This document shows, one piece after another, positions 3,462-48,724 of a stretch of 64,000 nt of DNA; the stretch's first letter is position 1, and each line of letters opens with the position of its first letter. The notes under the pieces were generated by a model. That model saw only the letters and a list, made by a program, of their open reading frames with translations, ran no database searches and was not told where the DNA came from. Source of the DNA: a virus (lineage: Duplodnaviria > Caudoviricetes); the IMG/VR virus record IMGVR_UViG_3300029288_000111, positions 37,093 through 101,092 of that record; one strand, written 5' to 3'. A program made the position numbers and the translations under genes.

Positions 3462-3722
3462 ATGGGCACACATGACACCCCTCCGAGCGGCGGATCGCAC
3501 GTCCGCTCACTCACGCTCTCTCACACCTTCGTCGTCGGCGACGGCGAGGACGCCCGCCTGCACTGCGACCACTGCGGTGAGGAAGTTCCGATGCCCTACG
3601 GGGTCGTCACCTGGGTCTGTGGCGTAATCGACGCCTTCAATGCCGCTCACTGCCGCTGCCACCCAGGCGACGAACCCTTTGGCCGCACCCGCTTTGCCGG
3701 AGAAAGGAATCCCGATGCCTGA
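3462..3722 (+). CDS. hypothetical protein with CxxC
   Basis: RBS AGGAG; ORF fits operon. Confidence 0.55.
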   Translation: MGTHDTPPSGGSHVRSLTLSHTFVVGDGEDARLHCDHCGEEVPMPYGVVTWVCGVIDAFNAAHCRCHPGDEPFGRTRFAGERNPDA

Positions 3723-14352: not shown

Positions 14353-15177
14353 CTAACTCCAGGTCCAGGGGAGTTCCCATGCGAGTTCTCCCACCGGCAG
14401 CGCCGGCTCGTTCGTGGCGACGAAACTCTTCGCCGTGGCCAGCACCGCCGCCAGCAGCAGGTTGCCCGCCGCCGCGGCGTCCATCAGCGCCAGGTGCGTC
14501 ACCGGACCGACGGGGCCCGCCAGCGCCGCCCAGGCCACCTCCGCCGCGTTTGCCAGGATCCGTCCGTAAGTGGTGGGGAAGATCGCCGTACTCACGTCTA
14601 CCCGCGCCACCCCTGCGGGCTCCGAGAGGCCGCTGCCGTCCTGATCCGGGTCCGCCAGGGAGAGCGCCAGGTGGAGTGCCGCCGGCATCGCCCAGGCCCC
14701 CTGCCCCAACAGGTGCGCCAGGAGGGCGTTCGCCACGTCGTCGCTCGCTCCTCCGAGGGTTGCATCCCAGGGGAGAGAGAAGTCCAACTCCCCCGCGGGG
14801 ATCTTCAGCGTGCCGCCGATCCCCACCGTCACGGCCGGCGCGAGCGCGTGGCTCGTCCAGTACTCGCTCCCCGCCGAGGCCGAGGCGTAGGGAGAGGTGA
14901 AGTAGTAGCCGATCTCTCCCCAGGCGGCCGTTGCCTTCGCGAAGCTGATGATGCCGCTGTTCGTCGCCGCCCGCGCGGCCGCCGCCCCCATCGAGGCGGT
15001 GATGTTCACTCGCGCGTAGGCGGCATCGGTCGGCTCGCTAATCCCGCTGCCGTCCGGGAGCGGGTCCGTCACCGAAGCCCCCAGGTAGATCGACCCGGGC
15101 AGCGCCCACGTCGCCTTGCGCGCGAGGTGGTTCCAGACGCGCTGGCAGAGCGCGTCGCTGAAACCTGTACTGGCCAT
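14353..15177 (-). CDS. minor tail protein with two homologous domains
   Basis: Internal duplication: DP..DGSG.SEP..ARV..N..F/W..P.GEL twice. Confidence 0.75.
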   Translation of the reverse strand: MASTGFSDALCQRVWNHLARKATWALPGSIYLGASVTDPLPDGSGISEPTDAAYARVNITASMGAAAARAATNSGIISFAKATAAWGEIGYYFTSPYASASAGSEYWTSHALAPAVTVGIGGTLKIPAGELDFSLPWDATLGGASDDVANALLAHLLGQGAWAMPAALHLALSLADPDQDGSGLSEPAGVARVDVSTAIFPTTYGRILANAAEVAWAALAGPVGPVTHLALMDAAAAGNLLLAAVLATAKSFVATNEPALPVGELAWELPWTWS

Positions 15178-23700: not shown

Positions 23701-25089
23701 TCATACCCGTCCACCCGCTGCACGACGCGGATCTCCTTCTGGCTCCTCGGGCTGTAACTGCGCTTCGTGCCATCGGGATAGGAGACGATCCCCTTGCCCG
23801 CCCGTCGCCTCCAACCTGGAAACCCGCCCACACCGGCCCCGGAACAGCACCATATCGCCGGTGCCGAAGTGGAAGCGCCGCTTCCACCGCCTGGCCGTCA
23901 TCGGCAGGCCGTCCTTCCCCAGACGGGGAAAACCGGGAGCGCGATACCGCCGCAGTCCGCGGTCTCCATGCCCCTTGGCAGTCGCGAAGAGAACCCACAC
24001 CTCCCGCGCCCCTCGCTTGACCGACAGGAGCGGCGCCTCGCTCCAGGCATACGCCGAGCGACCGACACAAAGAGCATCCAGCGAATGTGTCTTCGCCAAG
24101 CGGAACTGATCCCGAACGAAGTGCGTCATCCCGCCCGAGCCGGTTTCCAGGGGCAAGCCCATGCGCCGGATCCGGGCACAGAGATCGGTCCGCGCCGAGT
24201 TTACCGCCGCCGCGTCTTTATACGACTTACCCACCTGCGCTTGCACATCGGGGTGCCCAAACTCTACCGCCGTCCGGTTCTTCTTGGCCTGGTTGCACGG
24301 TCCGCAGGCGATGGTGAGATTGCTCACCCGATTGGTTCCGTCCCTGCCTTTCGGAATGATGTGCTCCACCTGAAGCGGCCCCGGAAACTTCTTGTTGCAG
24401 TAGGAGCAGCGGTGGTGGAACTTGTAGAGAAGATACTGCTTCAACTCGTAGCCGGCGAGGGTGCCGCGTTGATACTCCATCCCCTTGATGTCCGGCTTCT
24501 CCATCTTCTGGGTGTCGAAGCGCACCGCCTCGACCGATATTCCCGTCACCGGCGCCCACCGGCACAACCGCTCAATCCACGAAACCTGCGAAAGGACCCG
24601 CGCCTTCACCGCCGGAGACAGCCAGCGCCCGCGCGTGTCCTCGCCGTTGTGCCGCACGCCCTTGTGGCGCCAGCACCAGTCCTTGCCACTTCTGGCGTTC
24701 TGCCCGCAGATGTGGCACTTCACGCGCGGGCGGTTCCTGAAGCGCCGGGGGCGGTAGCGGCGATACTTGTTGCGGCGCATCCGGCGCCAGTTCCGACGCT
24801 GCTGCATCTTCTTGTGAATGCCCCGGCGGTGCTCAATCTCCATCAGCGCCAGGGCGCGCGGTCGGTTCCCGCCTTCTCGGACGACGGCCAGTCCAGTTGC
24901 CTTCGATCCCGGATCCAGCTTCACCCGCACCGACTGCAACTCGCTCTCTTCCACCGTTCGGTCCGCCAACCGGATCACGAAGGGGGAGCGGCGGTGAACA
25001 CGCGCCCGGCCCCTCTCCAGGAGGAGTCGCGCCCGCTTCTCCGTGCAGGGCATCAGCGGATTCTGATGTTTGTCCAGAACGTAGACCAT
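23701..25089 (-). CDS. iscB: IscB RNA-guided endonuclease (C-terminus appears frameshifted)
   Basis: PLMP, RuvC-I LDPGS, Arg-rich bridge helix, RuvC-II VEAVRFD, HNH CSYC..EHIIP..GTN..NL..C..CN, RuvC-III HSLDA. Confidence 0.95.
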   Translation of the reverse strand: MVYVLDKHQNPLMPCTEKRARLLLERGRARVHRRSPFVIRLADRTVEESELQSVRVKLDPGSKATGLAVVREGGNRPRALALMEIEHRRGIHKKMQQRRNWRRMRRNKYRRYRPRRFRNRPRVKCHICGQNARSGKDWCWRHKGVRHNGEDTRGRWLSPAVKARVLSQVSWIERLCRWAPVTGISVEAVRFDTQKMEKPDIKGMEYQRGTLAGYELKQYLLYKFHHRCSYCNKKFPGPLQVEHIIPKGRDGTNRVSNLTIACGPCNQAKKNRTAVEFGHPDVQAQVGKSYKDAAAVNSARTDLCARIRRMGLPLETGSGGMTHFVRDQFRLAKTHSLDALCVGRSAYAWSEAPLLSVKRGAREVWVLFATAKGHGDRGLRRYRAPGFPRLGKDGLPMTARRWKRRFHFGTGDMVLFRGRCGRVSRLEATGGQGDRLLSRWHEAQLQPEEPEGDPRRAAGGRV

Positions 25090-25398: not shown

Positions 25399-25447
25399 AG
25401 ACTTTTCAGCCCGCGCGCTTCAACTCGGAATCCGCATCGCGCAAGGA

Positions 25448-25820
25448 GTCGCAACGGACTCCGAATAGAAGCGGAGAGTGCGACGTTCTGGCGGGATGCA
25501 CGCCCCGAAGATCCTCCGTCGCAACGGACTCCGAATAGAAGCGGAGAGTGCGACGTTTCACGCCGCCGCTCCGATCCTGACCGGGCGAGTCGCAACGGAC
25601 TCCGAATAGAAGCGGAGAGTGCGACCCTCGTTTCATGCCGATACCGGCAGGTGCCGGCTGTCGCAACGGACTCCGAATAGAAGCGGAGAGTGCGACTCGG
25701 CGCTGTGATCGTGCCGCCCCTCCTGCCGGCGTCGCAACGGACTCCGAATAGAATCGGAGAGTGCGACTCCCAACCGTTCTGGCGTCGCAACGGACTCCGA
25801 ATCGGAACGAAGAGTGCGAC
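25448..25820. CRISPR. CRISPR mini-array: 6 x 37-bp repeats, 5 spacers (33, 34, 34, 34, 16 bp)
   Basis: GTCGCAACGGACTCCGAATAGAAGCGGAGAGTGCGAC at 25448, 25518, 25589, 25660; variants at 25731 and 25784; unique spacers; no cas1/cas2/cas6 recognised in window. Confidence 0.95.
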
Positions 25821-25855
25821 TGACACTCACCGCCGTTATCCCCTTCCACCCTAGA

Positions 25856-25881
25856 TAACGCTCGATGGCCGCGAGCGTTCC
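25856..25881 (-). promoter_or_regulatory. ECF-type promoter pointing into CRISPR array and iscB
   Basis: GGAAC gctcgcggccatcgag CGTTATC. Confidence 0.8.
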
Positions 25882-25900
25882 CACTTTTTTTCAAGGCGTT

Positions 25901-26140: not shown

Positions 26141-26353
26141 TCAGACCTCCCGCACCCGCCGCAGCGTCCTCCCCGGCACCACGACGAACGATCCGTCACC
26201 GAACTCCACCAGCACGTTCCGAGGCCCGGGCCCGCCGCTCCAGACCACCGCACGGCACTCCTGGCCGTAACGGCCGTTCCCCAGCGGGAAACTCGGATCC
26301 CAGGACGAGCGCCCGGCGCGGGCCACGTAACGGTAACGGCGATCAGGTTCCAT
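26141..26353 (-). CDS. small hypothetical protein
   Basis: Coupled ORF; RNVLVEFGDG..VVVP. Confidence 0.6.
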   Translation of the reverse strand: MEPDRRYRYVARAGRSSWDPSFPLGNGRYGQECRAVVWSGGPGPRNVLVEFGDGSFVVVPGRTLRRVREV

Positions 26354-26792
26354 CGTCTTCCGGGAACCCCGGCAGGAGCCGCGCCTTCGCGAAATCCCGC
26401 CGCCATCCCTTGAGCATCCCGAACCGCTCCCAGTACTCCACGACCTCCAGATCCTCGCAGTTCATCGAATCGCCGGTGCAGCCGTGGGCAGGCGGGTCGC
26501 CGTAGTGGATGCCGTCTTGGTACACGCCGCCCTTCGCGATCTGCTCCGCGAGGGTCGGGAACGGCTTGTCGGATTCCGCCCACTGGACTTTCTGCATCAA
26601 CCCCCAGGAAATCGCCACGAGGAACTCCTGCAGGCACGCCTGGCAGCGAATCCGCACCAGGGCGATCTCGTCGCAGTAGATATCATGGGCCATCGCAGGC
26701 TCGAATGGAGCATAGCGCGGCACCCCGGCCTCGTCGTACCAGTCGGGTTTCCGGTCCGTCAGCGCCTTGATGTCCTCGTAGAGAGCGTTCAC
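26343..26792 (-). CDS. conserved phage hypothetical protein
   Basis: WYDEAGVPRYAPF, CQAC, HYGDPP.H.C; own promoter and RBS. Confidence 0.75.
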   Translation of the reverse strand: MNALYEDIKALTDRKPDWYDEAGVPRYAPFEPAMAHDIYCDEIALVRIRCQACLQEFLVAISWGLMQKVQWAESDKPFPTLAEQIAKGGVYQDGIHYGDPPAHGCTGDSMNCEDLEVVEYWERFGMLKGWRRDFAKARLLPGFPEDDGT

Positions 26793-26814: not shown

Positions 26815-27741
26815 CTAACGCTCCACTCGCCGAATCGTTCCCGCTCCCTTCGCCCGGGCCACCTTCCGCATCGCCATCGCGAAATCCCACGCCGCCATCG
26901 CCTTGACTTCCTCCTTGGTCCACGTATCGGGGTCCTTGGAGATGCACGCCGGCCGCGGCGGCACCGGCGGCAGCGGCGGCGGCAGCGCCTTTCGCAGGTG
27001 CATCTCCTCGCGGATCTCGGGGAGCTTGCGCAGCAGCAGATCGCGCGCCCGGAACAGCCGAGTGCGCACGGTCGCGGGCGAGACGCCGATCCTCTCGGCT
27101 GCCTCCGACGGCTCCAGCCCCTCCATCCACACCAGCCGTGCCGTCTGGCGGAACGGCTCCGGAAACGCGGAGACGGCCCGCATGATCGCCGTCATCATCT
27201 CACGGCTCACCACGTGCTGCTCGGGGGTCATCCCGGCCGCTGCCAGGATGTCACTCAGCACGCCCCCATCCTCGCCCCCGAGCGGCGCGTCGAGGCTCTC
27301 CAGGGATGGCTGCCGGTTCCGCTGTCTCCCCAAGTCGCGCCATTTGTTCCTCGCAATCGTGAACGTCCACGCGCGGAAGTTCCTCACTTCGGCATCCTCC
27401 TCGCTCTCATCCTCTTTCTGGCTGGCGAGCGGGTCGAACTGCTCCAGCCCGCCCCACGCCGCGGCGAGGGTATCCTGCACCAGGTCGGCGGCATCATCCT
27501 CGCTCAGGCCGTGCTTGCGCGCCCAGCCGAACAGTTCCTGTTCCACCGCCTCATGCCACTCCTCGAACCGCCGCGTGCGCTCCGCGTCGGAGACGTGCCG
27601 CCAGTAGCCCTCGGCACCCGGCTCGCGAGTCCATTGCCCGCCCTCCGCGCTGCCCTTCGGCACGCGCGGCTCCTCACGCCATCCCTTCAACAGCCGCGAC
27701 GCCAGGATGTCACACGCAATCGCCTTCGCCAATCGGCTCAT
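26815..27741 (-). CDS. ECF-type RNA polymerase sigma factor with N- and C-terminal extensions
   Basis: Region 2 DAADLVQDT..F..W.FTIARNKWRD; region 4 FRQTARL..EGL..EAAERIGVSPATVRTRLFRAR. Confidence 0.92.
   Translation of the reverse strand: MSRLAKAIACDILASRLLKGWREEPRVPKGSAEGGQWTREPGAEGYWRHVSDAERTRRFEEWHEAVEQELFGWARKHGLSEDDAADLVQDTLAAAWGGLEQFDPLASQKEDESEEDAEVRNFRAWTFTIARNKWRDLGRQRNRQPSLESLDAPLGGEDGGVLSDILAAAGMTPEQHVVSREMMTAIMRAVSAFPEPFRQTARLVWMEGLEPSEAAERIGVSPATVRTRLFRARDLLLRKLPEIREEMHLRKALPPPLPPVPPRPACISKDPDTWTKEEVKAMAAWDFAMAMRKVARAKGAGTIRRVER
26816..26841 (-). promoter_or_regulatory. ECF-type promoter overlapping the sigma gene stop codon
   Basis: GGAAC gattcggcgagtggag CGTTAGC. Confidence 0.75.
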
Positions 27742-27757
27742 GGCTCTCTCCTATAGA

Positions 27758-27783
27758 TAACGACGAAACGCGCGGAGCGTTCC
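27758..27783 (-). promoter_or_regulatory. ECF-type promoter upstream of the sigma gene
   Basis: GGAAC gctccgcgcgtttcgt CGTTATC, then AGGAG and ATG 27741. Confidence 0.82.
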
Positions 27784-27789
27784 CGGAAT

Positions 27790-28011
27790 CTACTGCCAGC
27801 CGTACAGCGGCAGCCGCTTCACCGGCCGGGCGCACCGGACGTAGCCGGCGTGGATGTGTTTCAGCGAGAGGGAAATCTGGCAGGGGAGATCGTGGAGCGC
27901 GATCGGTTGGAGGCCGTCGCGCCACTCGGTGTAGAGGTGCGCTTCCGGCACGCAGTAGCGGTCCTCAAGGTTCCCCTCAGTCGTCGCCAGCGCCTCGCCG
28001 ATCTCCTCGAA
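27790..28011 (-). CDS. putative frameshift extension of tail assembly chaperone (GT-like)
   Basis: 73-codon high-GC3 frame (FEEIGEALATTEGNLEDRYC..YGWQ) with no start codon at its 5' end, entered by +1 slip at TTC TTT CGA. Confidence 0.6.
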   Translation of the reverse strand, partial: FEEIGEALATTEGNLEDRYCVPEAHLYTEWRDGLQPIALHDLPCQISLSLKHIHAGYVRCARPVKRLPLYGWQ

Positions 28012-28693
28012 AGAAACGGGCGAGCTGGGGGTCCAGCCCGTTACTGCTCCACATCCTGCTGTTCAGCGTGCGCACGATCATCGGCTCCCATTCCTCGGGG
28101 TCGGCCAACGGCAGCACCTTCGCCCCCGGCATCTCCTGCCCGGGCTCCCAGCCCGCCAGACCCCACACCCGCGGGTCCGTCTCCGCTTCCAGGAGATACC
28201 GCCCTTTCACCGCCGCGCGCAGCAACTCCAGGTCGCGCTCGCTCTCGTCCACCGTGCGCACGTTCGTCTTCGCGTTCACCTCGGTGTGCGCGCTCTCCGC
28301 CCGCCGCATCATCCCGTAGGTGAACGGCGCCAGGACGTAGGCTTCGCGGTACAGCGGCAGTCCTCCCAGGGCGAGCGCGTCCTGCATCTGCGAGAGAGCC
28401 AGTTCGCCGGCCGCGATCCGCGCGCTCAGGATCTCCCAGCGCGCCGTCCGCTCCGTCCGGTCCGCCCCGATGGTCTGCTCCGCCTCGGCGCGCTTCCCCT
28501 CGTCGCCGCTGTCCAGGGACAGTTTCGCCAGCTTCACCGGCGGCGGCAGCGACCCCTCCTCGAACAGCTTGTCACGGGCGTTCTGCAGACTGGCGATCTC
28601 CGCCCGCCGCAGGGCGATGTCTACCTCGTCCGGGCGCAGGATCTTCGCCCGCCCGCAGATGTGCATCTCGATGATCTCAACGTAGTGTTCCAC
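27977..28693 (-). CDS. tail assembly chaperone
   Basis: Directly follows tail tube; ends at a slippery site. Confidence 0.65.
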   Translation of the reverse strand: MEHYVEIIEMHICGRAKILRPDEVDIALRRAEIASLQNARDKLFEEGSLPPPVKLAKLSLDSGDEGKRAEAEQTIGADRTERTARWEILSARIAAGELALSQMQDALALGGLPLYREAYVLAPFTYGMMRRAESAHTEVNAKTNVRTVDESERDLELLRAAVKGRYLLEAETDPRVWGLAGWEPGQEMPGAKVLPLADPEEWEPMIVRTLNSRMWSSNGLDPQLARFFRGDRRGAGDD

Positions 28694-28699
28694 AGAGAC

Positions 28700-29113
28700 T
28701 GCGGCAGGGAGCCGCCGACTTCAGGCGGCGGAGGAATGCCGCACCTGCTTCGGAAGCAGGTGGAACTCCCTGCCTACTCCTTTCCATCAGATAGTTGACG
28801 GCAACCGCCAGTATGTTGATCCGCCAGTACTCCGCGAACAAGGCGCAGGAGTACTCCCTGGCAATCGCCGAAGTGGAGCCGCGCGGCACGAGCAAGAACT
28901 GCTCGCGTTGTGGACTTGCCGGTAAGCGCCGCCGTCACCAGTTCACCTGCCCGTCCTGTGGTCATGCGGAGCACGCCGATGTCAACGCGGCGCGCAACAT
29001 CCGCAACCGCTATACCGTGTCACGGCACGGTGGGGATCCGTCAGTATCCCCCGAAGCCCGGAACCCCTCGGGGAACGCGGGCAAGCTGCTGCCTTCAGGC
29101 AGCAGTCACTGAC
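28700..29113 (+). mobile_element. tnpB: internally deleted IS200/IS605-family element carrying a tnpB 3' fragment
   Basis: Subterminal hairpins GCCGCC-GACTTCA-GGCGGC and CTGCTGCC-TTCA-GGCAGCAG; TSKNCSRCG..FTCPSCG..ADVNAARNI; ends TGAC. Confidence 0.85.
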
Positions 29114-37533: not shown

Positions 37534-39027
37534 TCAGGCCGACACGGCCGCCACACCGGTGCGGCGCAGGCGCCCGATGTTCTTCACGTAGATGTTCTTC
37601 TCCGGCTCGGTCATGATCGGCGTGTGAATGAGGATCAGCGCGAAGGGATCCACCATCATCCCCGGCGGCAGCACGCGCTTCATGACCGGGCAGTACTGCG
37701 CGACGTAGGTCTGGTTGTCATCCATCGAGAGCGCGCACCCCTGATAGGTGTCGGGCTCCCAATAGCGGTCGTCATAGAACGTGGTGGTAGCACCGGTCGT
37801 GGTGCGGGCGACGGAGCAGAGGTGGCGCCGGTTGCCCGCCACGCTGCCATCGTCCGTGACTTTGTTCCGGAAGATGTGGAAGTAGATCACGTTGGCGTCG
37901 TTGCAGGTGATCGTCAGCGTGATTCGCTGCCCTGCCGTCGCCGTGATCGCCGCCGAGGTGGCGGCGGTGCTCATGCCGCCACGGCTGACAGCGCACACGT
38001 CGTAGTAGTAGGTGCCGGCCACCAGGCCGCGCCGGCTGTCGGTGGCGGTGTGCGCCCCGCCCGAGCCGGTGACACTCGTCGGTGCTGGCGGACTGTTCGG
38101 ACCTCCCACCAGGGGCGCCACGCGCGGCATCCCCATCGAAACGCCGGGGCGCAGCATGTGCACCCCCTTGACCTTCAGGTACTCGGGGTCGCCATCGAGA
38201 CTGGCCACGACGATCTCCCGGAACATCGCGCCCAACTGCCCCGCCCGCAGGTTCTCGTCCGCACGCTGCTCGGGGAACAGACTGCGCTGCAGATCGTTGA
38301 TCGCCCCGAACGGCAGGTAGACCCGCGACAGGTCGCAGTTGTTCTGCTCGGCGATGTCGGCCAGTACGGTGAGGCTCTCCTTGTCGAGCGGCGCGTTGCG
38401 CATATCCCACATGATGTTGTTGTCGGCCGTCGCCGCCGCCTCGATCTGGCAGAAGTAGCCATCGTGCTGAAGGCTGCTCACGGCGCTGCGGTCGAAGAAG
38501 AGACTGCGCTCGCAGTGGATGAGGAGTTCGCGCATCTTGAGCTGCTCCAACGTCTGCGTGATGTTCCGGCCGACGCCGTTGAACCCCACGCTGCGCTGAA
38601 GCTGCGCGATCAACTCCGCCTCCGCCTTGACGTACTTCGCCTTGACCGACTTTCCGGCACGCCGGAAGGTCGGGTCACTCACCACCCCCACGTCGGAGAA
38701 CCCGGCGGAGCCATCCATGCCGTAGGCGCCGAACCCGGTGTGCACGGCATACTCCACCATGATAGAGCCAGTCGGAATCTTCGTCACGTCGCGCCACGCC
38801 ACGAGCTGGCGCTGCTTCACCTCGACGCTACGCAGAGTGCCGTCGAGGTACTCCACGCCCAGTTGGGTAGCGCTGGTGGCGCCCCCCGCCGTGGTGCGCG
38901 GGATGGTGGAATCGGCAGTGATAGCCTTGCGCACCTCTTCCGTGATCAGGTTCACCTCGTTATCGAGATCGGAGCCGCCGCCATTCGGGAAGAAGGCATC
39001 CGGCCCCAGCACACTTGCGAACTCCAT
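37534..39027 (-). CDS. major capsid protein (SPO1/Twort-like, with Ig/FN3-like insertion)
   Basis: VRKAIT..L.VEYLD.TL, ERSLFF..Q.DG, DMRN, GTYYY.V.AV; follows protease and scaffold. Confidence 0.85.
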   Translation of the reverse strand: MEFASVLGPDAFFPNGGGSDLDNEVNLITEEVRKAITADSTIPRTTAGGATSATQLGVEYLDGTLRSVEVKQRQLVAWRDVTKIPTGSIMVEYAVHTGFGAYGMDGSAGFSDVGVVSDPTFRRAGKSVKAKYVKAEAELIAQLQRSVGFNGVGRNITQTLEQLKMRELLIHCERSLFFDRSAVSSLQHDGYFCQIEAAATADNNIMWDMRNAPLDKESLTVLADIAEQNNCDLSRVYLPFGAINDLQRSLFPEQRADENLRAGQLGAMFREIVVASLDGDPEYLKVKGVHMLRPGVSMGMPRVAPLVGGPNSPPAPTSVTGSGGAHTATDSRRGLVAGTYYYDVCAVSRGGMSTAATSAAITATAGQRITLTITCNDANVIYFHIFRNKVTDDGSVAGNRRHLCSVARTTTGATTTFYDDRYWEPDTYQGCALSMDDNQTYVAQYCPVMKRVLPPGMMVDPFALILIHTPIMTEPEKNIYVKNIGRLRRTGVAAVSA

Positions 39028-39130: not shown

Positions 39131-39964
39131 TCACTCCTGGAGACAGTTCTCCAGCACCATCTCCGGCGTCATCTCGGAGTCGGCGGGATGATCCACCGCC
39201 CAGCACGCATCGTCGAAGGCGGCCCCGTCGATCTTGCCGTCGAGGTATGCCTTCTGGAGGCGATCCAGCACCACGCCCTTCGTCAGTCTCCGAAGCGCCG
39301 GCGACTCCGCCTTGCGCAGCAGCCTCCGGGGGTGCGGGCTGGAGGGGCGGCCGGCCGCGGTCTCCGACATCTCCTCCAACTGGCCGACGAGCACGTCCAT
39401 CTTGTCGGCCAGCCCCTTCATCACCCGGCGCGCCGCCGCGTCTTCCGGGCTATCAGCGGCCGGCTCGGCCGCTGCCGGACGCGCCGCTACCGCCTTCTGC
39501 AGCTTCGCCACGTCCCTGCGCAGCGTGCCCAGGCCCTTCGTCAGCCCCTCCAGGTGATCGGCCACCGCCTTCAGGTAGGGCACGGCATCGAAAATCAACT
39601 CGTTACCCCCGGCCGCCTTCAGGAGGGTCTCGTGGAGGTCGTCGGCATCCACATCCGGCGTCGAGACGCTCTTGCGCACCTTGCGCGGGGGCGCCTCCTC
39701 CTCCTCCTCCTCCGACTCGTCCTCTTCCTCCGGCTCCGGCTCTGGCTCCGGCTCCTCCTCCTCCTCCGACTCCTCTTCCTCGTCGTCGGGAGCAGGGGCG
39801 GCCGCCGGCTTCCGCTTGCGCTCCTTGCGGATCTCCTCGGCCAGCGCGGCCGGGTTCTCCTCCAGCGCCTTCACCAGCGGCAGCGCCTGGTCCAACTCAT
39901 CCTCAGTGGCGGTGCCCGCTCGCAGGCGCCCCACGAACTGCTTCATCTCAGTCAGTAGAGACAT
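39131..39964 (-). CDS. capsid scaffolding protein
   Basis: Acidic low-complexity tract, coiled coil, many hydrophobic-x-K[AGS] sites. Confidence 0.75.
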   Translation of the reverse strand: MSLLTEMKQFVGRLRAGTATEDELDQALPLVKALEENPAALAEEIRKERKRKPAAAPAPDDEEEESEEEEEPEPEPEPEEEDESEEEEEEAPPRKVRKSVSTPDVDADDLHETLLKAAGGNELIFDAVPYLKAVADHLEGLTKGLGTLRRDVAKLQKAVAARPAAAEPAADSPEDAAARRVMKGLADKMDVLVGQLEEMSETAAGRPSSPHPRRLLRKAESPALRRLTKGVVLDRLQKAYLDGKIDGAAFDDACWAVDHPADSEMTPEMVLENCLQE

Positions 39965-39983: not shown

Positions 39984-40784
39984 TCAAGCAGCGCGTTCCG
40001 CCGCCTCGATCAGCGCGTCAATACGGTCGGCCCACAGCGCCCCCAGCGCCTTCTGGACCGGCGTCGGCTTGCGGCGCTTCTTCTTCGCCGCCTGGCCTTC
40101 CTCACAGTGACCCTCGATCTGCTCCACCCCGAGCGCGCTGACCGTTGGCCCCACGTGCGGCAGCGCCGCGCTGGCGGTGATCGCCTTGATACAGGGCAGC
40201 TCGCTCACGAGCTCGGGGATGATCGGAAACTGAATCTCCTCGAATGGCAGGTCCGACCGGAGTGCCTTCGCGAAGGCGATGGTGCCCACGTTCCGGCTCT
40301 GGATCGGCCGGGCGGTGATTCCCACCGTCGAAATGAACGGAACTACCTTCGACCCCAGCCGCTTCTTCACGCACCCGGCCACCGAGTAGCCGTACTTCCG
40401 GCCGTGCGCCAGGCCGTCCACCATCTGATCGGCCCATTTGGTGCCCTTGAGGAGATTGGTCCGCAGCCACGGCACATCCACCCCACTCTGGGGATGGGGC
40501 GCCCGGTAACGCTCGATGCCGTACCCCATGATGTAGTTGTCATCGAGGGTGCGCTCGTAGAGGTGCTCGTGATCGACGATCTGACCCAGGCGGTCGAACC
40601 CCTCCTCCAGGCCCTTCTCGAACTCCTGCGAACAGTCCATCTCGTCGCCTTCAAGATCGGCCGTCGGCTCCGTCAGCGGCCCCTCCACGATCCAGGTCTT
40701 GCCGTCCGCCGACGCCGCCGCTTTCTCAATCGGCACGTAGAACGAGAACGGCTTGACCAGTTCCTCTGCTACCACGGCGCTCAC
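39984..40784 (-). CDS. prohead maturation protease
   Basis: IEKA..VEG..DLEGD, DHEH..IMG, GYSVAG, IT.RP motifs. Confidence 0.8.
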   Translation of the reverse strand: MSAVVAEELVKPFSFYVPIEKAAASADGKTWIVEGPLTEPTADLEGDEMDCSQEFEKGLEEGFDRLGQIVDHEHLYERTLDDNYIMGYGIERYRAPHPQSGVDVPWLRTNLLKGTKWADQMVDGLAHGRKYGYSVAGCVKKRLGSKVVPFISTVGITARPIQSRNVGTIAFAKALRSDLPFEEIQFPIIPELVSELPCIKAITASAALPHVGPTVSALGVEQIEGHCEEGQAAKKKRRKPTPVQKALGALWADRIDALIEAAERAA

Positions 40785-41844: not shown

Positions 41845-43035
41845 TCAGAGAAACGTTGGGTCTATCTCGTGCAGGAACGCAAACCGATCCGGTGCTGCCG
41901 CGAACCTGTGTCCGATAACACCAGCACCGCCCGGGAGGATGACATTGTTCCGGCTCCAGTCATCCCCATCGGCGCCATTGTTCACTAGCAACCAGATGTG
42001 CTCTCGGTCGCCTTCGACCAAGAACTCTTCTCCGGTTCCGTAGATAGTGAATCCGCCGTGGTACTTCACTCGTCGACCATCCGGCAGCGGAACGTTCAAT
42101 GGGTGTTCCGCATCTCCTGGGTTGAAGAGAGACGCCTTGCGCTGGGCGAGCATCTTGTCTGCCGAGTTCCTCTGCTCGACCTCACGCCGAGCCTTCTCAG
42201 CGCGCTCCGTGCAGGCTTTCGTATCGCGGCAGAATACGTGCCACCCAGGTCGAGCACCGAACCCGAGGTGATCGTCCACGTCATCCTCGTCATAGTGAAC
42301 GAGGCTTCCTTCACCCGCTGGCACCATTCTGCCGCATGTAGAACAGTGCTGGGCGCGACGGTTCGTGCGCTTGGGCGCCGCACTTGCCTTCGGTGTTGCT
42401 GCGCGTTGGGGCGTCCTCTGCATCGCCAGCGAGCAATGCCTTCGGACACTCTCCTCAGCCTCAGCGGGGAAGACCCACATTTCGTTCACCGGACTCCACT
42501 GACCACCCAGCGCCCGAGCGCCCGACTCGAACGCAGGGTCCCTCAGTATCCACTTTGCCCCAAGCAACCTCGCTGACACAAGTAGCTTCTTGGACCCACG
42601 ACTGGGGAAACGCCCGAGTTCGAACTCGAACATTTCCTCGGGGTTGTACTGCTTCTTTTCCATCGTCGTTTCCCCTTTCCCTGGAGATAACGACGATTTC
42701 GACGCCGCGTTCCCGGAATCTTCCCTCCCAGCGAAGAGATCCGGCCCCGCTTCCTTGACCTTCTCCCGCTTGGTCATGTCCGGCCGCTTCCCCTTCGCCT
42801 TCTCGGGCTTCTTGTCCTCCACCCAGTAGGTCTGGGTGAAGTGCTCGGTCTTCCCGCCCCGCTTGCGGGTGACGCTCTTGCGCTCCTCGTGCAGCCCCTG
42901 GCGGGGCGCGCTGTGGGGCGTGTCACTCTCGCCGAAGCACAGCCACCGCTGCCCGCCCCGCTCCCGCCGGCCGTACTTCGAGAGCGCCTTCTCCAGCAGG
43001 AGTTTCAACGCGATGCACTTCGCCAGCTTACTCAT
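41845..43035 (-). CDS. leader-module fusion protein A; internal restart at ATG 42663
   Basis: MSKLAKCIALKLLLEKA leader, duplicated module, lower-GC cargo with CSTC; GGAGG RBS. Confidence 0.75.
   Translation of the reverse strand: MSKLAKCIALKLLLEKALSKYGRRERGGQRWLCFGESDTPHSAPRQGLHEERKSVTRKRGGKTEHFTQTYWVEDKKPEKAKGKRPDMTKREKVKEAGPDLFAGREDSGNAASKSSLSPGKGETTMEKKQYNPEEMFEFELGRFPSRGSKKLLVSARLLGAKWILRDPAFESGARALGGQWSPVNEMWVFPAEAEESVRRHCSLAMQRTPQRAATPKASAAPKRTNRRAQHCSTCGRMVPAGEGSLVHYDEDDVDDHLGFGARPGWHVFCRDTKACTERAEKARREVEQRNSADKMLAQRKASLFNPGDAEHPLNVPLPDGRRVKYHGGFTIYGTGEEFLVEGDREHIWLLVNNGADGDDWSRNNVILPGGAGVIGHRFAAAPDRFAFLHEIDPTFL
42688..42713 (-). promoter_or_regulatory. intragenic ECF-type promoter
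   Basis: GGAAC gcggcgtcgaaatcgt CGTTATC, then AAAGGGG RBS and in-frame ATG. Confidence 0.8.
42709..42991 (-). repeat. 283-bp direct repeat, copy A
   Basis: Gapless, high-identity alignment to 48389-48671 (offset 5680). Confidence 0.9.
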
Positions 43036-43853: not shown

Positions 43854-44138
43854 CTACCCCTCCCGCCCGATCTGCTCGTGCGCCATCGCTTCCACCTGCC
43901 GCGCCCGCGCCAGCGTCTGCACCGCCCGCAGGTAAGCGATGCGCGCTTCCCGGCGCTTCACCGGGTCCGGGTCATCCACCAGTGGCGCGAACCGCTCCTG
44001 CGCCGCCAGCGCCTTCTTGATCAGCGCCTCGGCCGCTATCTGGCACTCCCGCGCCCGCAACCGTACCGCGTGGGCACTCTTCTCCGCCCGCGCCAGCGCC
44101 CGCCGCGCCCGCTCCTGGCTCTTGGGGAGGGTTGGCAT
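43854..44138 (-). CDS. hypothetical helical protein
   Basis: Coupled to upstream gene (TGATG). Confidence 0.65.
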   Translation of the reverse strand: MPTLPKSQERARRALARAEKSAHAVRLRARECQIAAEALIKKALAAQERFAPLVDDPDPVKRREARIAYLRAVQTLARARQVEAMAHEQIGREG

Positions 44139-44524
44139 CAGTCCTCGTCATCCCACTCCATCTTGCCGGACAGGGTTGCCCGATGGTGAACCGTAGCAAC
44201 CCGTATGGCACTCTCATGGGATGGCAGAACTGCAATACGCTTCTCCACCCCTCCCGCCTTCTGGTGGTAAGTGAGCCAGTGCCGGCCGTTAGGCGCGCCC
44301 TCAATATAGTAAACACCATGCCCGGCGTCCGCACGATGCACGGGGGCCCCCTTCGCTTCCCTGCTCCCCTGCGAGAAGTGGAGTTGCGGTTTGGCGTCCG
44401 TAGCATCAAAGTCCATGACCCCCTGCCCGGCCTTCTCCGCCCGCTGCTTCCCCGCCGCCGTCAACCCTTTCAGGAGCCGCTCCACCACGATGTTGAGCGC
44501 GATGGACTTGCCCAGTCTACTCAT
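44138..44524 (-). CDS. leader-bearing hypothetical protein
   Basis: MSRLGKSIALNIVVERLLKG. Confidence 0.7.
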   Translation of the reverse strand: MSRLGKSIALNIVVERLLKGLTAAGKQRAEKAGQGVMDFDATDAKPQLHFSQGSREAKGAPVHRADAGHGVYYIEGAPNGRHWLTYHQKAGGVEKRIAVLPSHESAIRVATVHHRATLSGKMEWDDED

Positions 44525-45675
44525 CCCCGTCCCTCCAGCCGCTCCAGGAGCAACTTCAGCGCGATCGCCTTCGCCAGGCGTCCGCCGCGCGTCGCCCGGC
44601 CCCGGATCATCCGCAGGAAGGTGCTCTCGCTCACGCGCGTCGCCTCATGGTCGAACTTCCCCAGGTCCGGCACGTGCTTCCACTGCCCGCGCACCAACAT
44701 CTGCGGCCAGGAAGCGTGCGCCCGCCGGACCGCCGGCTGCCCATCCCACGAGTAGTATCCCGCGGAGAGCGCCGGTCGCCCCCGCCGCGCCACGTCCGGG
44801 TGGTGGAAGTGTGACCGCCGCTTCCCCTGCCCCTTCATCAGCCCGCCCTTCTTCCCCAGCACCGGCGTTCGCCCCTCCATATTCCGCACCGCCTGCCCGT
44901 AGAGGCGGTTGGAGCGCGCGTTCAGGTCCTGATACCGTACCTTCCCCTCCGGCGTCTCCAGGTCCGCCGGCTTCATCGAGCGCATCCCCTCGTAGAGCTT
45001 GTGCCCCGCCGCTTCCCCGCCCAGACCGTGCTGCTTGGCCTGCAGCATGTCGATCGGCATGATCTGCAGTTCTCCAACGTGCCCGGTCTGGGGGTGCTGT
45101 GGGCGCACGGTGATGTCCTGGTAGCCGGCGTCCGTCTTCTTGTAATCCGGGGCGCCCGCCAGCGGCATCCCCGCCTGCCGCAGGTGGTGCGTCACGTGCG
45201 CGATGTCGTCGGGGTGGCTCACGGCGATGGTCGCCCGGCTCACGTCCTTGAGCTGTCGGTAATCGCCTCCCTTTCCCTCGATCTTCTCCTTCGCCCGCTT
45301 CTCGCCCTTGAGCGGCGCCAGGATCACCATCCCGCCCTTGCGGTGCCCCGCCGCATAGTCCTCCGGCGTCGGAGAGTGCCCCTCGACGACGTGCAACCCC
45401 AGTTTCGACGAGAGCCCCTTCTCCCGGTCAATCACGTTGTCCAGCCACTCCTTGTGCGCCGCGGCGTGCTGGTAGAGCGTCGGCAGGTGGCCGCTCTTCT
45501 GGCGCACCTCGTGTTCCGGGGTGGCCGTCATCTCCTCGTGGGTGAAGTGCTCCGTGGCCTCCGGCCCGGTCCGCCGGTGCGCCGATTCCGGGTCGAAGTG
45601 CGGGGCGCCTATCGGCGGGGCCGCCGGGCGCGTGGCAGGAGTCGAGACTCCGGGGCGGGGTTGTGGGTAGATCAT
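44521..45675 (-). CDS. RelA/SpoT-like nucleotidyltransferase domain protein
   Basis: LK..RA.EK, LKDVSRATI, GYQD, ELQI, GHKLYE motifs; leader-like sequence at C-terminus. Confidence 0.75.
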   Translation of the reverse strand: MIYPQPRPGVSTPATRPAAPPIGAPHFDPESAHRRTGPEATEHFTHEEMTATPEHEVRQKSGHLPTLYQHAAAHKEWLDNVIDREKGLSSKLGLHVVEGHSPTPEDYAAGHRKGGMVILAPLKGEKRAKEKIEGKGGDYRQLKDVSRATIAVSHPDDIAHVTHHLRQAGMPLAGAPDYKKTDAGYQDITVRPQHPQTGHVGELQIMPIDMLQAKQHGLGGEAAGHKLYEGMRSMKPADLETPEGKVRYQDLNARSNRLYGQAVRNMEGRTPVLGKKGGLMKGQGKRRSHFHHPDVARRGRPALSAGYYSWDGQPAVRRAHASWPQMLVRGQWKHVPDLGKFDHEATRVSESTFLRMIRGRATRGGRLAKAIALKLLLERLEGRG

Positions 45676-46481
45676 GACCTCTCCGATCCTCTCAGTACCT
45701 TCTGCCGTTCTCCATACTCGGGGTAATCGGCCAGCACTTCCGGCGGCACCGGCTTCCCGTCGTACCGCACCGCATCGCTCACACTCGTCCGGTGCATAGC
45801 CTCAAGATCGTGTTGCACCATCTGCATGTTGAAGCGATGCCCGGGAGCGAGTCCCTTTTCCTCCTGCCGCGTCTGCTCCAGGCCCGCTGTCACGAACTCC
45901 TCCCGCGTCATCTGCCAAGGCTCTCTCTTGGCAGGCTTCTCGCGCTTCGCTCCTGTGCTGCTGCTCCTCCCACCGTCAGGCGCTGCACCCACGCGGGCTT
46001 CCTGCGCCCCCCCAGTCACCGCGGAGAATCTCGGCGTTGGCACGGTCGTAGGTGTGCTGGGTGTCTCCGCCACCCGGGAACCCCATGCGCGCGCCACATC
46101 GCCCGCGAAGTCATCATGACTTTGCCACAGTTTGCTCTGCTCCAGTGGTAGGTTGAAGAATTCGTTGGCAGCAACGTTCCGCACTTGAGTGGCACTGCCC
46201 GAACCATGCAACTGCGTCCGTATGCGCCTAAGCACCACTTCAACCACCTTGGGTTTGCTGTCCGCACCCTCGGCGGCGGCCGCAGGCGTGCTAGGTGCCC
46301 CTCTCCCCTTCGGCACGAACTCCCCGCCCCGGTACTGCCCGGTGGCTCCCTGCTGCGCCCGAGGGTGCTGCTGCTCGAAGTCGAACCCCATCTGCCCGGC
46401 CGCCGCCGCCGCCCGGAAGGCCCGCTTCGAGGCCGCCTTCACCAGGATGTCGAGCGCGATCGCTTTGCCGAGAAGACTCAT
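45672..46481 (-). CDS. leader-bearing protein with polyvalent-protein motifs
   Basis: MSLLGKAIALDILVKA; HPR..GGEF; PWQMTREEF; KPVPPEVLADYP. Confidence 0.7.
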   Translation of the reverse strand: MSLLGKAIALDILVKAASKRAFRAAAAAGQMGFDFEQQHPRAQQGATGQYRGGEFVPKGRGAPSTPAAAAEGADSKPKVVEVVLRRIRTQLHGSGSATQVRNVAANEFFNLPLEQSKLWQSHDDFAGDVARAWGSRVAETPSTPTTVPTPRFSAVTGGAQEARVGAAPDGGRSSSTGAKREKPAKREPWQMTREEFVTAGLEQTRQEEKGLAPGHRFNMQMVQHDLEAMHRTSVSDAVRYDGKPVPPEVLADYPEYGERQKVLRGSERS

Positions 46482-47578: not shown

Positions 47579-48724
47579 TCAATCCCACTGATGCCGATTC
47601 GCCTTCTCCTCGCGCTCCTTCTTGATCGCAGCAAGAATCTCGGGGTGCTCCGCGTCGAACTGTGCCAGTCGCTCCCTGGCTTCCTCAGCAGCCTCCACAT
47701 GCTTCGCCCGTTCGTGGTATCCCACATCCACGATGCCGCGATCGTGCGCGCGGTTCACGGCATCATCGGCATCATCCATGTGGCCTGACACCTCGGCCGC
47801 CAGCCGCTGCCGCTCCGCGCGAAGCGTATCCAACTTGCCCGATGGAGTCTGCCGCTCCGCCTCGTCGGCTACCCGGATCGCCTCGATGATCGCCTTGGCC
47901 TCTTCGCTCGTCAAACCGATGGCGGGCTTCGTGTGGCTCAGGTAGTGGGTCGTATCCCCAACCCGCTTGTTGAGTTTGGTAGGATCTCCGGTACCAACGT
48001 ACTTGCCGTCCAGATACGCTTGGGCGACGTGCTGACCCGCGTACCGGTGCAGCTTGATCTCGACGGTTCTCCCGTCCTTTCCTGTCTTCTTGATGACCGC
48101 ATTCATCGTCGTTTCCCCTTTCACTGGAGATAACGACGGGGAGGCGCCAGCGTTCCCGGAATACTTCTCTTCGGAAGAAGCCATCCCCGCTGCCTCTCGA
48201 AAGACCTTGAGGAGTTCTTGCGCCAACTCTAAACTCATGCCGTGTCCTGGATACTCCCCTGTGTCAATCCCGAGTTTGACAGTATAGGCATTATCCACGT
48301 TCCAGGCGACGCTATGACCTGCTGCGGCCGTCTTCATTTGCTCCAACAGCCTTGTTTCTTCCTGGTTCAGGCTTCTCTTCTCCCCAGCGTTCCCGGAATC
48401 TTTTCTCTCGCTGAAGAGGTCCGGTCCCTCATCCTTCGCCTTCTCCCGCTTGCCGAAGTCCGGCCGCTTCCCCTTCGCCTTCTCGGGCTTCTTGTCCTCC
48501 ACCCAATACGTCTGGGTGAAGTGCTCGGTCTTGCCGCCCCGCTTGCGGGTGACGCTCTTGCGCTCCTCGTGCAACCCCTGGCGGGGCGCGCCGTGGGGCG
48601 TGTCACTCTCGCCGAAGCGCAGCCACCGCTGCCCGCCCCGCTCCCGCCGACTGTACTTCGAGAGCGCCTTCAGCACTCGCTCGGTGAGGATGTCAAGCGC
48701 AATCGCTTTCGCCAACCTGCTCAT
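47579..48724 (-). CDS. leader-module fusion protein B; internal restart at ATG 48106
   Basis: MSRLAKAIALDILTERVLKA leader, duplicated module, different cargo; GGAGGT RBS. Confidence 0.75.
   Translation of the reverse strand: MSRLAKAIALDILTERVLKALSKYSRRERGGQRWLRFGESDTPHGAPRQGLHEERKSVTRKRGGKTEHFTQTYWVEDKKPEKAKGKRPDFGKREKAKDEGPDLFSERKDSGNAGEKRSLNQEETRLLEQMKTAAAGHSVAWNVDNAYTVKLGIDTGEYPGHGMSLELAQELLKVFREAAGMASSEEKYSGNAGASPSLSPVKGETTMNAVIKKTGKDGRTVEIKLHRYAGQHVAQAYLDGKYVGTGDPTKLNKRVGDTTHYLSHTKPAIGLTSEEAKAIIEAIRVADEAERQTPSGKLDTLRAERQRLAAEVSGHMDDADDAVNRAHDRGIVDVGYHERAKHVEAAEEARERLAQFDAEHPEILAAIKKEREEKANRHQWD
48131..48156 (-). promoter_or_regulatory. intragenic ECF-type promoter
   Basis: GGAAC gctggcgcctccccgt CGTTATC, RBS, in-frame ATG. 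Confidence 0.8.
48389..48671 (-). repeat. 283-bp direct repeat, copy B
   Basis: Aligns to 42709-42991. Confidence 0.9.

Follow-up and report, generated by a model that had tools for sequence, protein, structure and literature searches.

Why should a phage place on a sigma factor the same short leader that heads a set of candidate internal proteins of its head? The question is raised by a gene that we call sigma2, which lies in a 64,000-nucleotide (nt) stretch of DNA, hereafter the window, from an uncultured phage (bases 37093-101092 of the single 101,092-bp virus record IMGVR_UViG_3300029288_000111; 66% G+C). The original prediction held that sigma2 encodes an extracytoplasmic function (ECF) sigma factor that is made late, packaged into the virion, trimmed by the prohead protease and injected to start early transcription. 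Our computational analysis supports a tag resembling a capsid-targeting signal and protease-like cleavage motifs on sigma2 and weakens its proposed role as the starter of early transcription. We put the probability that sigma2 would be loaded into procapsids, trimmed, delivered and used to give its regulon a head start at roughly 45%. Coordinates refer to the window unless they are marked as genome, L001 or L002 (all from the same record) or L009 (the contig of a relative).

The sigma2 open reading frame (ORF) encodes a genuine ECF sigma factor, as originally proposed. Its translation matched Pfam Sigma70_r2 (PF04542, regions 2.1-2.4) at 41.9 bits against a cut-off of 24, Sigma70_r4_2 (PF08281) at 29.6 bits against 25.7, and TIGR02937 (sigma70-ECF) at 67.8 bits against 42.9, the last over residues 59-240 and model positions 3-165 of 165. 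In an AlphaFold model built on a 42-sequence alignment, the predicted local distance difference test score (pLDDT) exceeds 90 for residues 41-250, and residues 19-42 are modelled with low confidence. The protein has neither region 1.1 nor a sigma-3 domain, and in the model a short linker alone joins sigma-2 to sigma-4. The top structural matches in the PDB were M. tuberculosis SigH, E. coli SigE, AlgU and SigL. Compared with 2h27 (region 4 of E. coli SigE on -35 DNA), the model gave a template-modelling (TM) score of 0.81 at 31% identity, and the helix-turn-helix is present. Protein searches returned generic ECF sigma factors as the closest matches, at 33% identity and covering the core alone. 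Translation begins at an ATG preceded by GGAGAGAG, and the G+C content at third codon positions (GC3) is 0.87, indicating normal coding constraint along the entire ORF.

Outside this core, sigma2 carries a 20-residue leader, a flexible linker and a Pro-rich C-terminal tail. The tail ends in a helix that is modelled with moderate confidence even though no sequence of the alignment covers it. When we compared the tail with the six-frame translation of the genome, no paralogue was found. A possible internal start, GAGGAG-N6-GTG, lies in the linker at in-frame codon 28 (27655-27680, minus strand), and initiation there could possibly give a leaderless sigma2 from the same mRNA. The 5' leader RNA of sigma2 showed no structure exceeding that of shuffled controls.

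The leader is not peculiar to sigma2. It recurs at the N-termini of four other window proteins, which we refer to as A to D, and a hidden Markov model (HMM) of the leader detected copies in the six-frame genome at E values from 2e-11 to 5e-8. These include one at the C-terminus of a RelA/SpoT-like protein and two beyond the window, on a 160-amino-acid (aa) ORF beside portal-side genes and at the N-terminus of a 2465-aa DarB homologue. The genome thus holds eight carriers, at least eight unrelated proteins in all, and the relative L009 adds one. In L009 the tag is again C-terminal, on the protein just upstream of head genes whose capsid protein is 53% identical to ours. Because the codons differ between copies and the DNA upstream of them is unrelated, selection acts on the tag peptide, which is predicted to form a 20-aa amphipathic helix. 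The copy on sigma2 is intact and, at 37.5 bits, ranks third of the eight.

The identity and position of the other carriers bear on what the tag might do. The tag-headed DarB is a true homologue of P1 DarB (32% identity in the methylase, with a collinear helicase), and seven of the eight carriers lie between the probable portal gene, assigned from a weak match, and the probable protease gene. There they adjoin polyvalent ART, helicase and InPase proteins, and polyvalent proteins are a kind predicted to be packaged (PMC5512222). Because it sits on unrelated carriers, at either terminus, heads the DarB homologue and clusters from portal to protease, the tag behaves like a capsid-targeting tag, and we consider it probable that it serves as this phage's capsid-targeting signal. 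When the tag profile was run against the non-tag proteome, the top match was residues 225-236 of the scaffolding protein, a conserved stretch close to its C-terminus, and the orthologous segment of the L009 scaffold also ranked high. These data suggest that mimicry of a scaffold helix may bring tagged proteins into the scaffold core.

Two further motifs follow the tag in some of its carriers. A GGQW-type motif occurs 27-52 residues from the N-terminus in sigma2 and in three other leader proteins. A second motif, A-G-Q-x(2,3)-[FLM]-D-F, lies 25-35 residues from the N-terminus in three tagged proteins (45672-46481, 44138-44524 and L001:15123-15605). It resembles a sliding-clamp-binding motif, and the phage has its own DnaN-like clamp (L002:10109-11254).

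The original prediction pointed to a hydrophobic-x-K-[AGS] pattern shared by sigma2 with the capsid, scaffold and protease, which we defined as [LIVMF]-x-K-[AGS]. The scaffold contains 9 matches, where 0.85 are expected, and the protease contains 5, where 1.3 are expected. The L009 protease also has five, and one match just before the C-terminal helix of the protease is kept in both phages. A single match in the capsid protein stands at a conserved N-terminal position, and the sites in all three proteins are kept between our phage and L009. Counted by lysine, half of those in the scaffold (9 of 18; P = 2.7e-5) and 9 of 13 in the L009 scaffold (P = 6.5e-7) fall in this context, against 74 of 716 (10%) in the proteome. 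Control patterns with Arg, Glu, Asp or Gln in place of Lys, and the reversed motif, occurred 0-2 times in the scaffold test. The strong, specific enrichment of the motif in both scaffolds is what a maturation-protease site would show.

The patterns in scaffold, protease and capsid protein fit a Lys-specific prohead protease, which would yield a multiply cut scaffold, a self-trimmed protease and a capsid protein minus a short propeptide. The HK97 capsid protein is likewise cleaved after lysine. We assigned the protease from its gene position, its conserved His74 and Ser134, protein-language-model look-alikes, and structural look-alikes in families S78 and S77; this putative assignment is a lead, not proof. 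In sigma2 itself, four matches were found against 0.68 expected, at residues 4-7, 17-20, 27-30 and 249-252. All four lie outside the core, in low-confidence or linker regions, and the last (LRK/A, the slash marking the putative cut) falls directly after the final sigma-4 helix. The shared leader, the GGQW motif, the LRK/A site with its Pro-rich tail and the lysine pattern in the three head proteins, all named in the original prediction, are therefore present as described there, and for the scaffold the pattern is also statistically enriched.

The phage encodes a second ECF sigma factor, sigma1, outside the window, and this paralogue provides a direct comparison. Sigma1 is 39% identical to sigma2 across sigma2 residues 34-240. 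It carries no leader, no Pro-rich tail and no match to the lysine motif. Its gene closes a leftward operon of a lambda-like early region. The operon begins at a perfect TTGACA-N17-TATAAT promoter, and an 11/12 sigma-70 promoter in the same region faces rightward, toward LexA-like and Xis-like genes. Such perfect consensus promoters imply that the host uses canonical sigma-70 promoters. No ECF promoter was found before sigma1, even at one mismatch, so sigma1 is not autoregulated. An ECF-type promoter within the last sigma1 codons is predicted to drive the following gene.

Given its sigma-70 early promoters and sigma1, the phage needs no imported protein to start transcription or to produce an ECF sigma factor. 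The claim that sigma2 starts early transcription is accordingly weakened; the early promoters and the leaderless sigma1 suffice, and an injected sigma factor would not be needed.

Three further promoter or RNA elements were seen in this part of the genome. A 12/12 TTGACA-N17-TATAAT sequence (L002:14483-14511, plus strand) lies inside the 5' part of the sigma1 gene, antisense to it, and may yield an antisense RNA controlling sigma1. Between a RecT-like gene and the ribosome-binding site of sigma1 there is a 12-bp G+C-rich hairpin without a T-run (genome 32555-32610, L002 about 14555-14610), which may act in attenuation, processing or stability. An 11/12 sigma-70-type promoter at genome 21639-21667 (minus strand; L002 about 3639-3667) immediately precedes the terminase-side genes and may be where the long late operon of the minus strand begins, which would then need the host sigma factor and not the ECF sigma factors.

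A sigma factor requires a core enzyme. No match to PF00562 or PF04997 was found in the record, with positive controls, although the record is perhaps incomplete (CheckV completeness 72%). PF00940 matched nowhere in the genome, and its control matched nowhere either. None of the large ORFs scanned carried a Pfam RNA-polymerase domain. Since no phage RNA polymerase was detected, the host core enzyme is implied as the partner of sigma2, and a phage-encoded polymerase was rejected for that part.

A GGAAC/CGTTA promoter had been reported upstream of sigma2, and we located it 16 nt before the start codon. It is one of 13 exact copies of GGAAC-N16-CGTTA in the window; at one mismatch or fewer there are 14 sites, where shuffled sequence gives 1.6. 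The whole genome has 18 exact sites, with ATTCCG conserved upstream, and these split cleanly into two subclasses by the three bases after CGTTA. The ten GCA sites precede the DnaN-like clamp gene, a C5 methylase, the genes just downstream of each sigma gene, and others. The eight TCT sites include those before sigma2, the IscB guide array, three plus-strand morons and a nuclease overprinted in the DarB intein. TCT sites also stand at in-frame internal starts in proteins A and D, where they are predicted to give leaderless cargo parts. Some TCT sites are recent cassette duplicates. In L009 (430-500 and 680-760), the linker peptides flanking the cargo domain and the C-terminal tag terminate in Q-D-S-G-K; their DNA resembles decayed copies of the ATTCCGGGAAC promoter box and matches the in-frame promoters inside proteins A and D.

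The recognition helices of sigma1 and sigma2 both resemble that of SigE. Two sigma factors and two promoter classes invite a one-to-one assignment, in which the TCT class is the candidate target of sigma2. If sigma2 alone reads the TCT class, some sigma2 must already be present before its own promoter can fire. Late read-through could supply it, as could injected protein or recognition of that promoter by sigma1 as well.

Taking the paralogy, the tag family, the motif enrichment and the promoter regulon together, we propose the following course for targeting, cleavage, ejection, promoter choice and timing. Sigma2 would be a duplicate of an early sigma core with three additions (tag, flexible linker and C-terminal tail) bounded by hydrophobic-x-K-[AG] sites, and sigma1 would be the ordinary, early-made factor. 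Made late, sigma2 would be drawn into procapsids together with the DarB homologue, the RelA/SpoT-like enzyme and other tagged proteins, its tag probably working by imitating the conserved C-terminal scaffold segment. The Lys-specific protease that degrades the scaffold would then cut sigma2 at K19 and/or K29, and at K251; cuts at K29 and K251 would leave a core of about 222 aa, near the size of sigma1. Ejected with the DNA, the trimmed core would pair with host core RNA polymerase on GGAAC-N16-CGTTA promoters. Sigma2 delivered in this way would let the ECF regulon, or the TCT class within it, be transcribed sooner, in parallel with sigma-70 early transcription and without replacing it.

Not every part of this course is equally probable. 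That active sigma2 reaches the next cell is a tentative proposal. We hold as similarly doubtful the stricter form, in which a scaffold-mimicking tag loads sigma2, the protease trims it, and the injected factor redirects host core polymerase before any phage protein is made, leaving sigma1 as a conventional early-to-middle switch.

Several results count against packaging and delivery, besides the sufficiency of the early promoters and sigma1. Of the tagged genes, sigma2 alone falls outside the block from portal to protease; the island around it, with IscB and a TnpB fragment, looks mobile. A search of 5.8 billion proteins gave no sigma2 orthologue that might show the tag to be kept on a sigma factor. 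A HMMER search of 1.84 billion representatives with the tag-plus-linker module (120 aa) returned its own two copies and two spurious repeat proteins. The scaffold segment scored barely above the next match to the tag profile (19.0 versus 17.8), and the motif count in sigma2 is by itself only marginally above background (P = 0.04). The protease gene matched nothing in Pfam, PHROGs or the PDB sequences, its assignment resting on look-alikes, position and the His/Ser pair. Finally, the tag has no sequence similarity to the T4 and P1 signals.

If the tag binds procapsids, it need not follow that sigma2 is delivered. Sigma2 could be the second step of a cascade from sigma-70 through sigma1, or a moron regulator, that is removed on procapsids and destroyed there. 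Assembly would then shut off its regulon, much as export of the anti-sigma factor FlgM is coupled to assembly, and no active sigma factor would pass to the next cell. Such a role would suit a genome in which sigma1 and the sigma-70 promoters make delivery superfluous and in which two sigma factors face two promoter subclasses. A self-promoter is typical of autoregulated ECF sigma factors, and protease-type sites occur inside the tag itself. However, the sigma2 core is free of the motif and the scaffold is rich in it, which looks like trimming and not destruction, and the other tagged proteins (the DarB homologue and the RelA-like enzyme) are of kinds known or predicted to act in the next host. 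We regard removal and destruction as unlikely.

The leader could also act without any packaging, as a pro-sequence or membrane-binding amphipathic helix that keeps its carriers inactive or localised until they are cleaved. A predicted amphipathic helix followed by a flexible linker has the right form, membrane-targeting helices can act at either terminus, and the leader and tail of sigma2 flank a core of sigma1 size. However, it is in the scaffold, a protein processed within proheads, that the cleavage-type motif is enriched. The carriers cluster among head genes, and the tag is found on a DarB homologue whose P1 counterpart is loaded into capsids through its N-terminus. A pro-sequence or membrane anchor therefore seems to us improbable. 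A functionless tag, copied as a module boundary when a sigma duplicate entered the accessory island, would account for sigma2 as the orphan outside the head block, for the IscB and TnpB fragment around it and for the demonstrable duplication of promoter-plus-module cassettes in this genome, but is very improbable given a high-scoring tag with its own codons, both K sites kept, a matching site after region 4 and coding constraint over the entire ORF.

We therefore tentatively favour packaging, trimming and delivery of sigma2. The features discussed are collected in Table 1.

Table 1. Coordinates of sigma2, its segments and promoters, the other tag copies, the head genes and sigma1
Feature	Coordinates	Strand	Remarks
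sigma2, tagged ECF sigma factor	26815..27741	-	308 aa
Shared leader/tag, residues 1-20	27682..27741	-	Predicted helix; hydrophobic-x-K-[AG] matches LAK/A and LLK/G
Flexible linker, residues 21-42	27616..27681	-	pLDDT <50; VPK/G and GGQW
Sigma core, residues 43-248	26998..27615	-	Paralogue-shared N-extension, sigma-2, sigma-4; no hydrophobic-x-K-[AGS]
LRK/A, residues 249-252	26986..26997	-	Candidate C-terminal processing site directly after last sigma-4 helix
Pro-rich linker and C-terminal helix, residues 253-308	26818..26985	-	Helix 276-300, pLDDT 66-87
ECF-type promoter GGAAC-N16-CGTTA, TCT subclass	27758..27783	-	16 nt upstream of sigma2 start codon
Second ECF-type promoter, GCA subclass	26816..26841	-	Within last sigma2 codons; predicted to drive 149-aa gene 26343-26792
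Leader copy, protein A (47579-48724)	48665..48724	-	N-terminus
Leader copy, protein B (45672-46481)	46422..46481	-	N-terminus
Leader copy, protein C (44138-44524)	44465..44524	-	N-terminus
Leader copy, protein D (41845-43035)	42976..43035	-	N-terminus
Tag at C-terminus of RelA/SpoT-like protein (44521-45675)	44524..44586	-	Leader HMM
Major capsid protein	37534..39027	-	phrog_752; one conserved EEV-x-K/AIT site, residues 30-37
Scaffolding protein	39131..39964	-	9/18 lysines in hydrophobic-x-K-[AGS]; residues 225-236 are best non-tag match to tag
Probable prohead serine protease	39984..40784	-	His74 and Ser134 kept in relative; look-alikes are S78/S77 prohead proteases
sigma1, leaderless ECF sigma factor	genome 31844-32554 (L002:13844-14554)	-	236 aa; outside window

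Nearly all phage genes are on the minus strand. In minus-strand order they begin with the large terminase and a weak portal match, followed by a long block of probable internal or ejected proteins. This block includes an InPase/2'-5' ligase polyvalent protein, the 2465-aa DarB homologue with an intein and a 2577-aa ART-helicase polyvalent protein, also with an intein. The probable prohead protease, the scaffold and the major capsid protein come next, and then neck and tail genes. Both contig ends (63400-64000 and L001:1-756) lie inside one gene with 354-bp (118-aa) tandem repeats. The record's first 120 bases recur exactly near the opposite end; for this reason the genome map is probably closed, or the assembly broke, at the contig ends.

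The phage lineage is almost unsampled. When we searched with the capsid protein, INPHARED gave only matches below 27% identity and GTDB genomes gave no relative. In IMG/VR, the single sequence found nothing, and a two-sequence profile found one distant locus. An index of 5.8 billion proteins gave one 5.9-kb contig at 53% (L009, from sequencing run SRR34485632, the sole relative found) and one distant phage at 28%. The tag was also searched as a degenerate DNA pattern; IMG/VR gave one chance match, inside a head-tail connector, and metagenomes gave 71 matches, all unrelated and mostly from one gut gene family.

Sigma2 is encoded on the late strand, in an accessory island among tail genes, with its own promoter. 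Directly upstream (27790-28693, minus strand), a 238-aa ORF overlaps a 91-codon frame, and the two resemble a pair of tail chaperones produced by programmed frameshifting. If they are tail chaperones, the island of sigma2 and IscB would split the usual junction between chaperone and tape measure. IscB (RRXRR and HNH domains, PLMP start; 23701-25089, minus strand) lies downstream of a short repeat array (25400-25900) that is headed by a TCT-class promoter at 25856-25881. A 105-aa ORF with a TnpB-like C-terminal zinc-ribbon motif (28795-29112, plus strand), antisense between tail genes, looks like a mobile-element remnant beside the island. Just downstream of sigma2, a 149-aa Cys/His-rich protein has its own GCA-class promoter. 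It matches phrog_27600 (function not known) and no other family, and is a possible sigma2 partner or anti-sigma factor.

How does sigma2 compare with known systems? Like E. coli SigE and M. tuberculosis SigH, it has a sigma-2/sigma-4 architecture and a SigE-like recognition helix, and a GGAAC/CGT-type promoter, its candidate target, lies before its own gene. It differs from these ECF sigma factors in its N-terminal tag and linker, its C-terminal Pro-rich helix tail and its leaderless paralogue, and no recognisable anti-sigma partner was found for it. A sigma factor made with a short N-terminal extension also recalls Bacillus pro-sigmaE and pro-sigmaK, in which a pro-sequence of roughly 20-27 aa is removed by membrane proteases (SpoIIGA or SpoIVFB type) at a developmental checkpoint. 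In sigma2, by contrast, the flanking motif is the one enriched in a capsid scaffold. Encapsulin cargo-loading peptides are short terminal helices that, from either end, dock unrelated cargo inside an HK97-fold shell. The tag resembles them as a short terminal helix usable at either end on unrelated cargo, but encapsulins have no DNA, tail, protease processing or delivery to another cell. If it works as we propose, an either-terminus tag could become a tool for loading proteins into HK97-type capsids.

ECF-like sigma factors are known from phages of the phiEco32/7-11 group (PMC4331800), and transcription machinery is borne in the virions of N4 (virion RNA polymerase) and of phiKZ and AR9 (PMC4496689, PMC7598289). 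The virion proteome of Salmonella phage Arash includes the sigma factor Gp10 (24 unique peptides) together with the phage's own RNA polymerase beta/beta' subunits, and its authors allow carry-over as an explanation for the sigma factor (PMC10585845). In preparations of Staphylococcus phage fRuSau02, a sigma factor was detected and dismissed by the authors as carry-over. The arrangement proposed for sigma2 would likewise supply particle-borne transcription proteins to the next cell. N4, phiKZ and Arash, however, carry their own polymerase; none was found here, and sigma2 would take over the host core. A literature search found no description of a packaged ECF sigma factor. If our reading is correct, a delivered sigma factor that captures the host core polymerase would give phages a third means of controlling the opening minutes of infection, much cheaper than the whole polymerases carried by N4 and phiKZ or the polymerase-modifying enzymes typified by T4 Alt. 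The genome offers a built-in comparison, a sigma core with tag, sites and tail against a core without them, and the scaffold enrichment indicates that head protease specificity can sometimes be read from the genome.

The closest parallels to the tag come from T4 and P1. In T4, an N-terminal peptide of roughly 10-20 aa sits on unrelated proteins and ends in a head-protease site, the protease having the specificity L/I-x-E; the cargo leaves the head with the DNA and includes Alt, which retunes the RNA polymerase of the host. This capsid targeting sequence, carried by the internal proteins IPI-III and by Alt, is removed by the prohead protease gp21 (PMC9026906, PMC3012670). Our tag is similarly a short peptide common to unrelated proteins and ends at a putative site of the head protease. 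It differs from the T4 system in head lineage, protease specificity and tag sequence, in being C-terminal on some carriers, and in a cargo that is a sigma factor and not a modifying enzyme.

In P1, the first 30 residues of DarB suffice for loading a reporter into capsids (Gonzales et al. 2022, PMC9024508). A short N-terminal peptide thus sends a large antirestriction methylase-helicase into the head, and in our phage the tag heads a homologue of that very protein. The first 30 residues of P1 DarB share with the tag a four-residue likeness and nothing meaningful beyond it, so the analogy is one of position and role, not homology. No common signal was found among the P1 Dar proteins (PMC9024508), whereas here one tag recurs on at least eight proteins, and the P1 capsid protein is cut after Glu, where the motif here has Lys. 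By analogy, then, this system would function like the T4 capsid-targeting sequence and the P1 DarB signal, yet it is homologous to neither.

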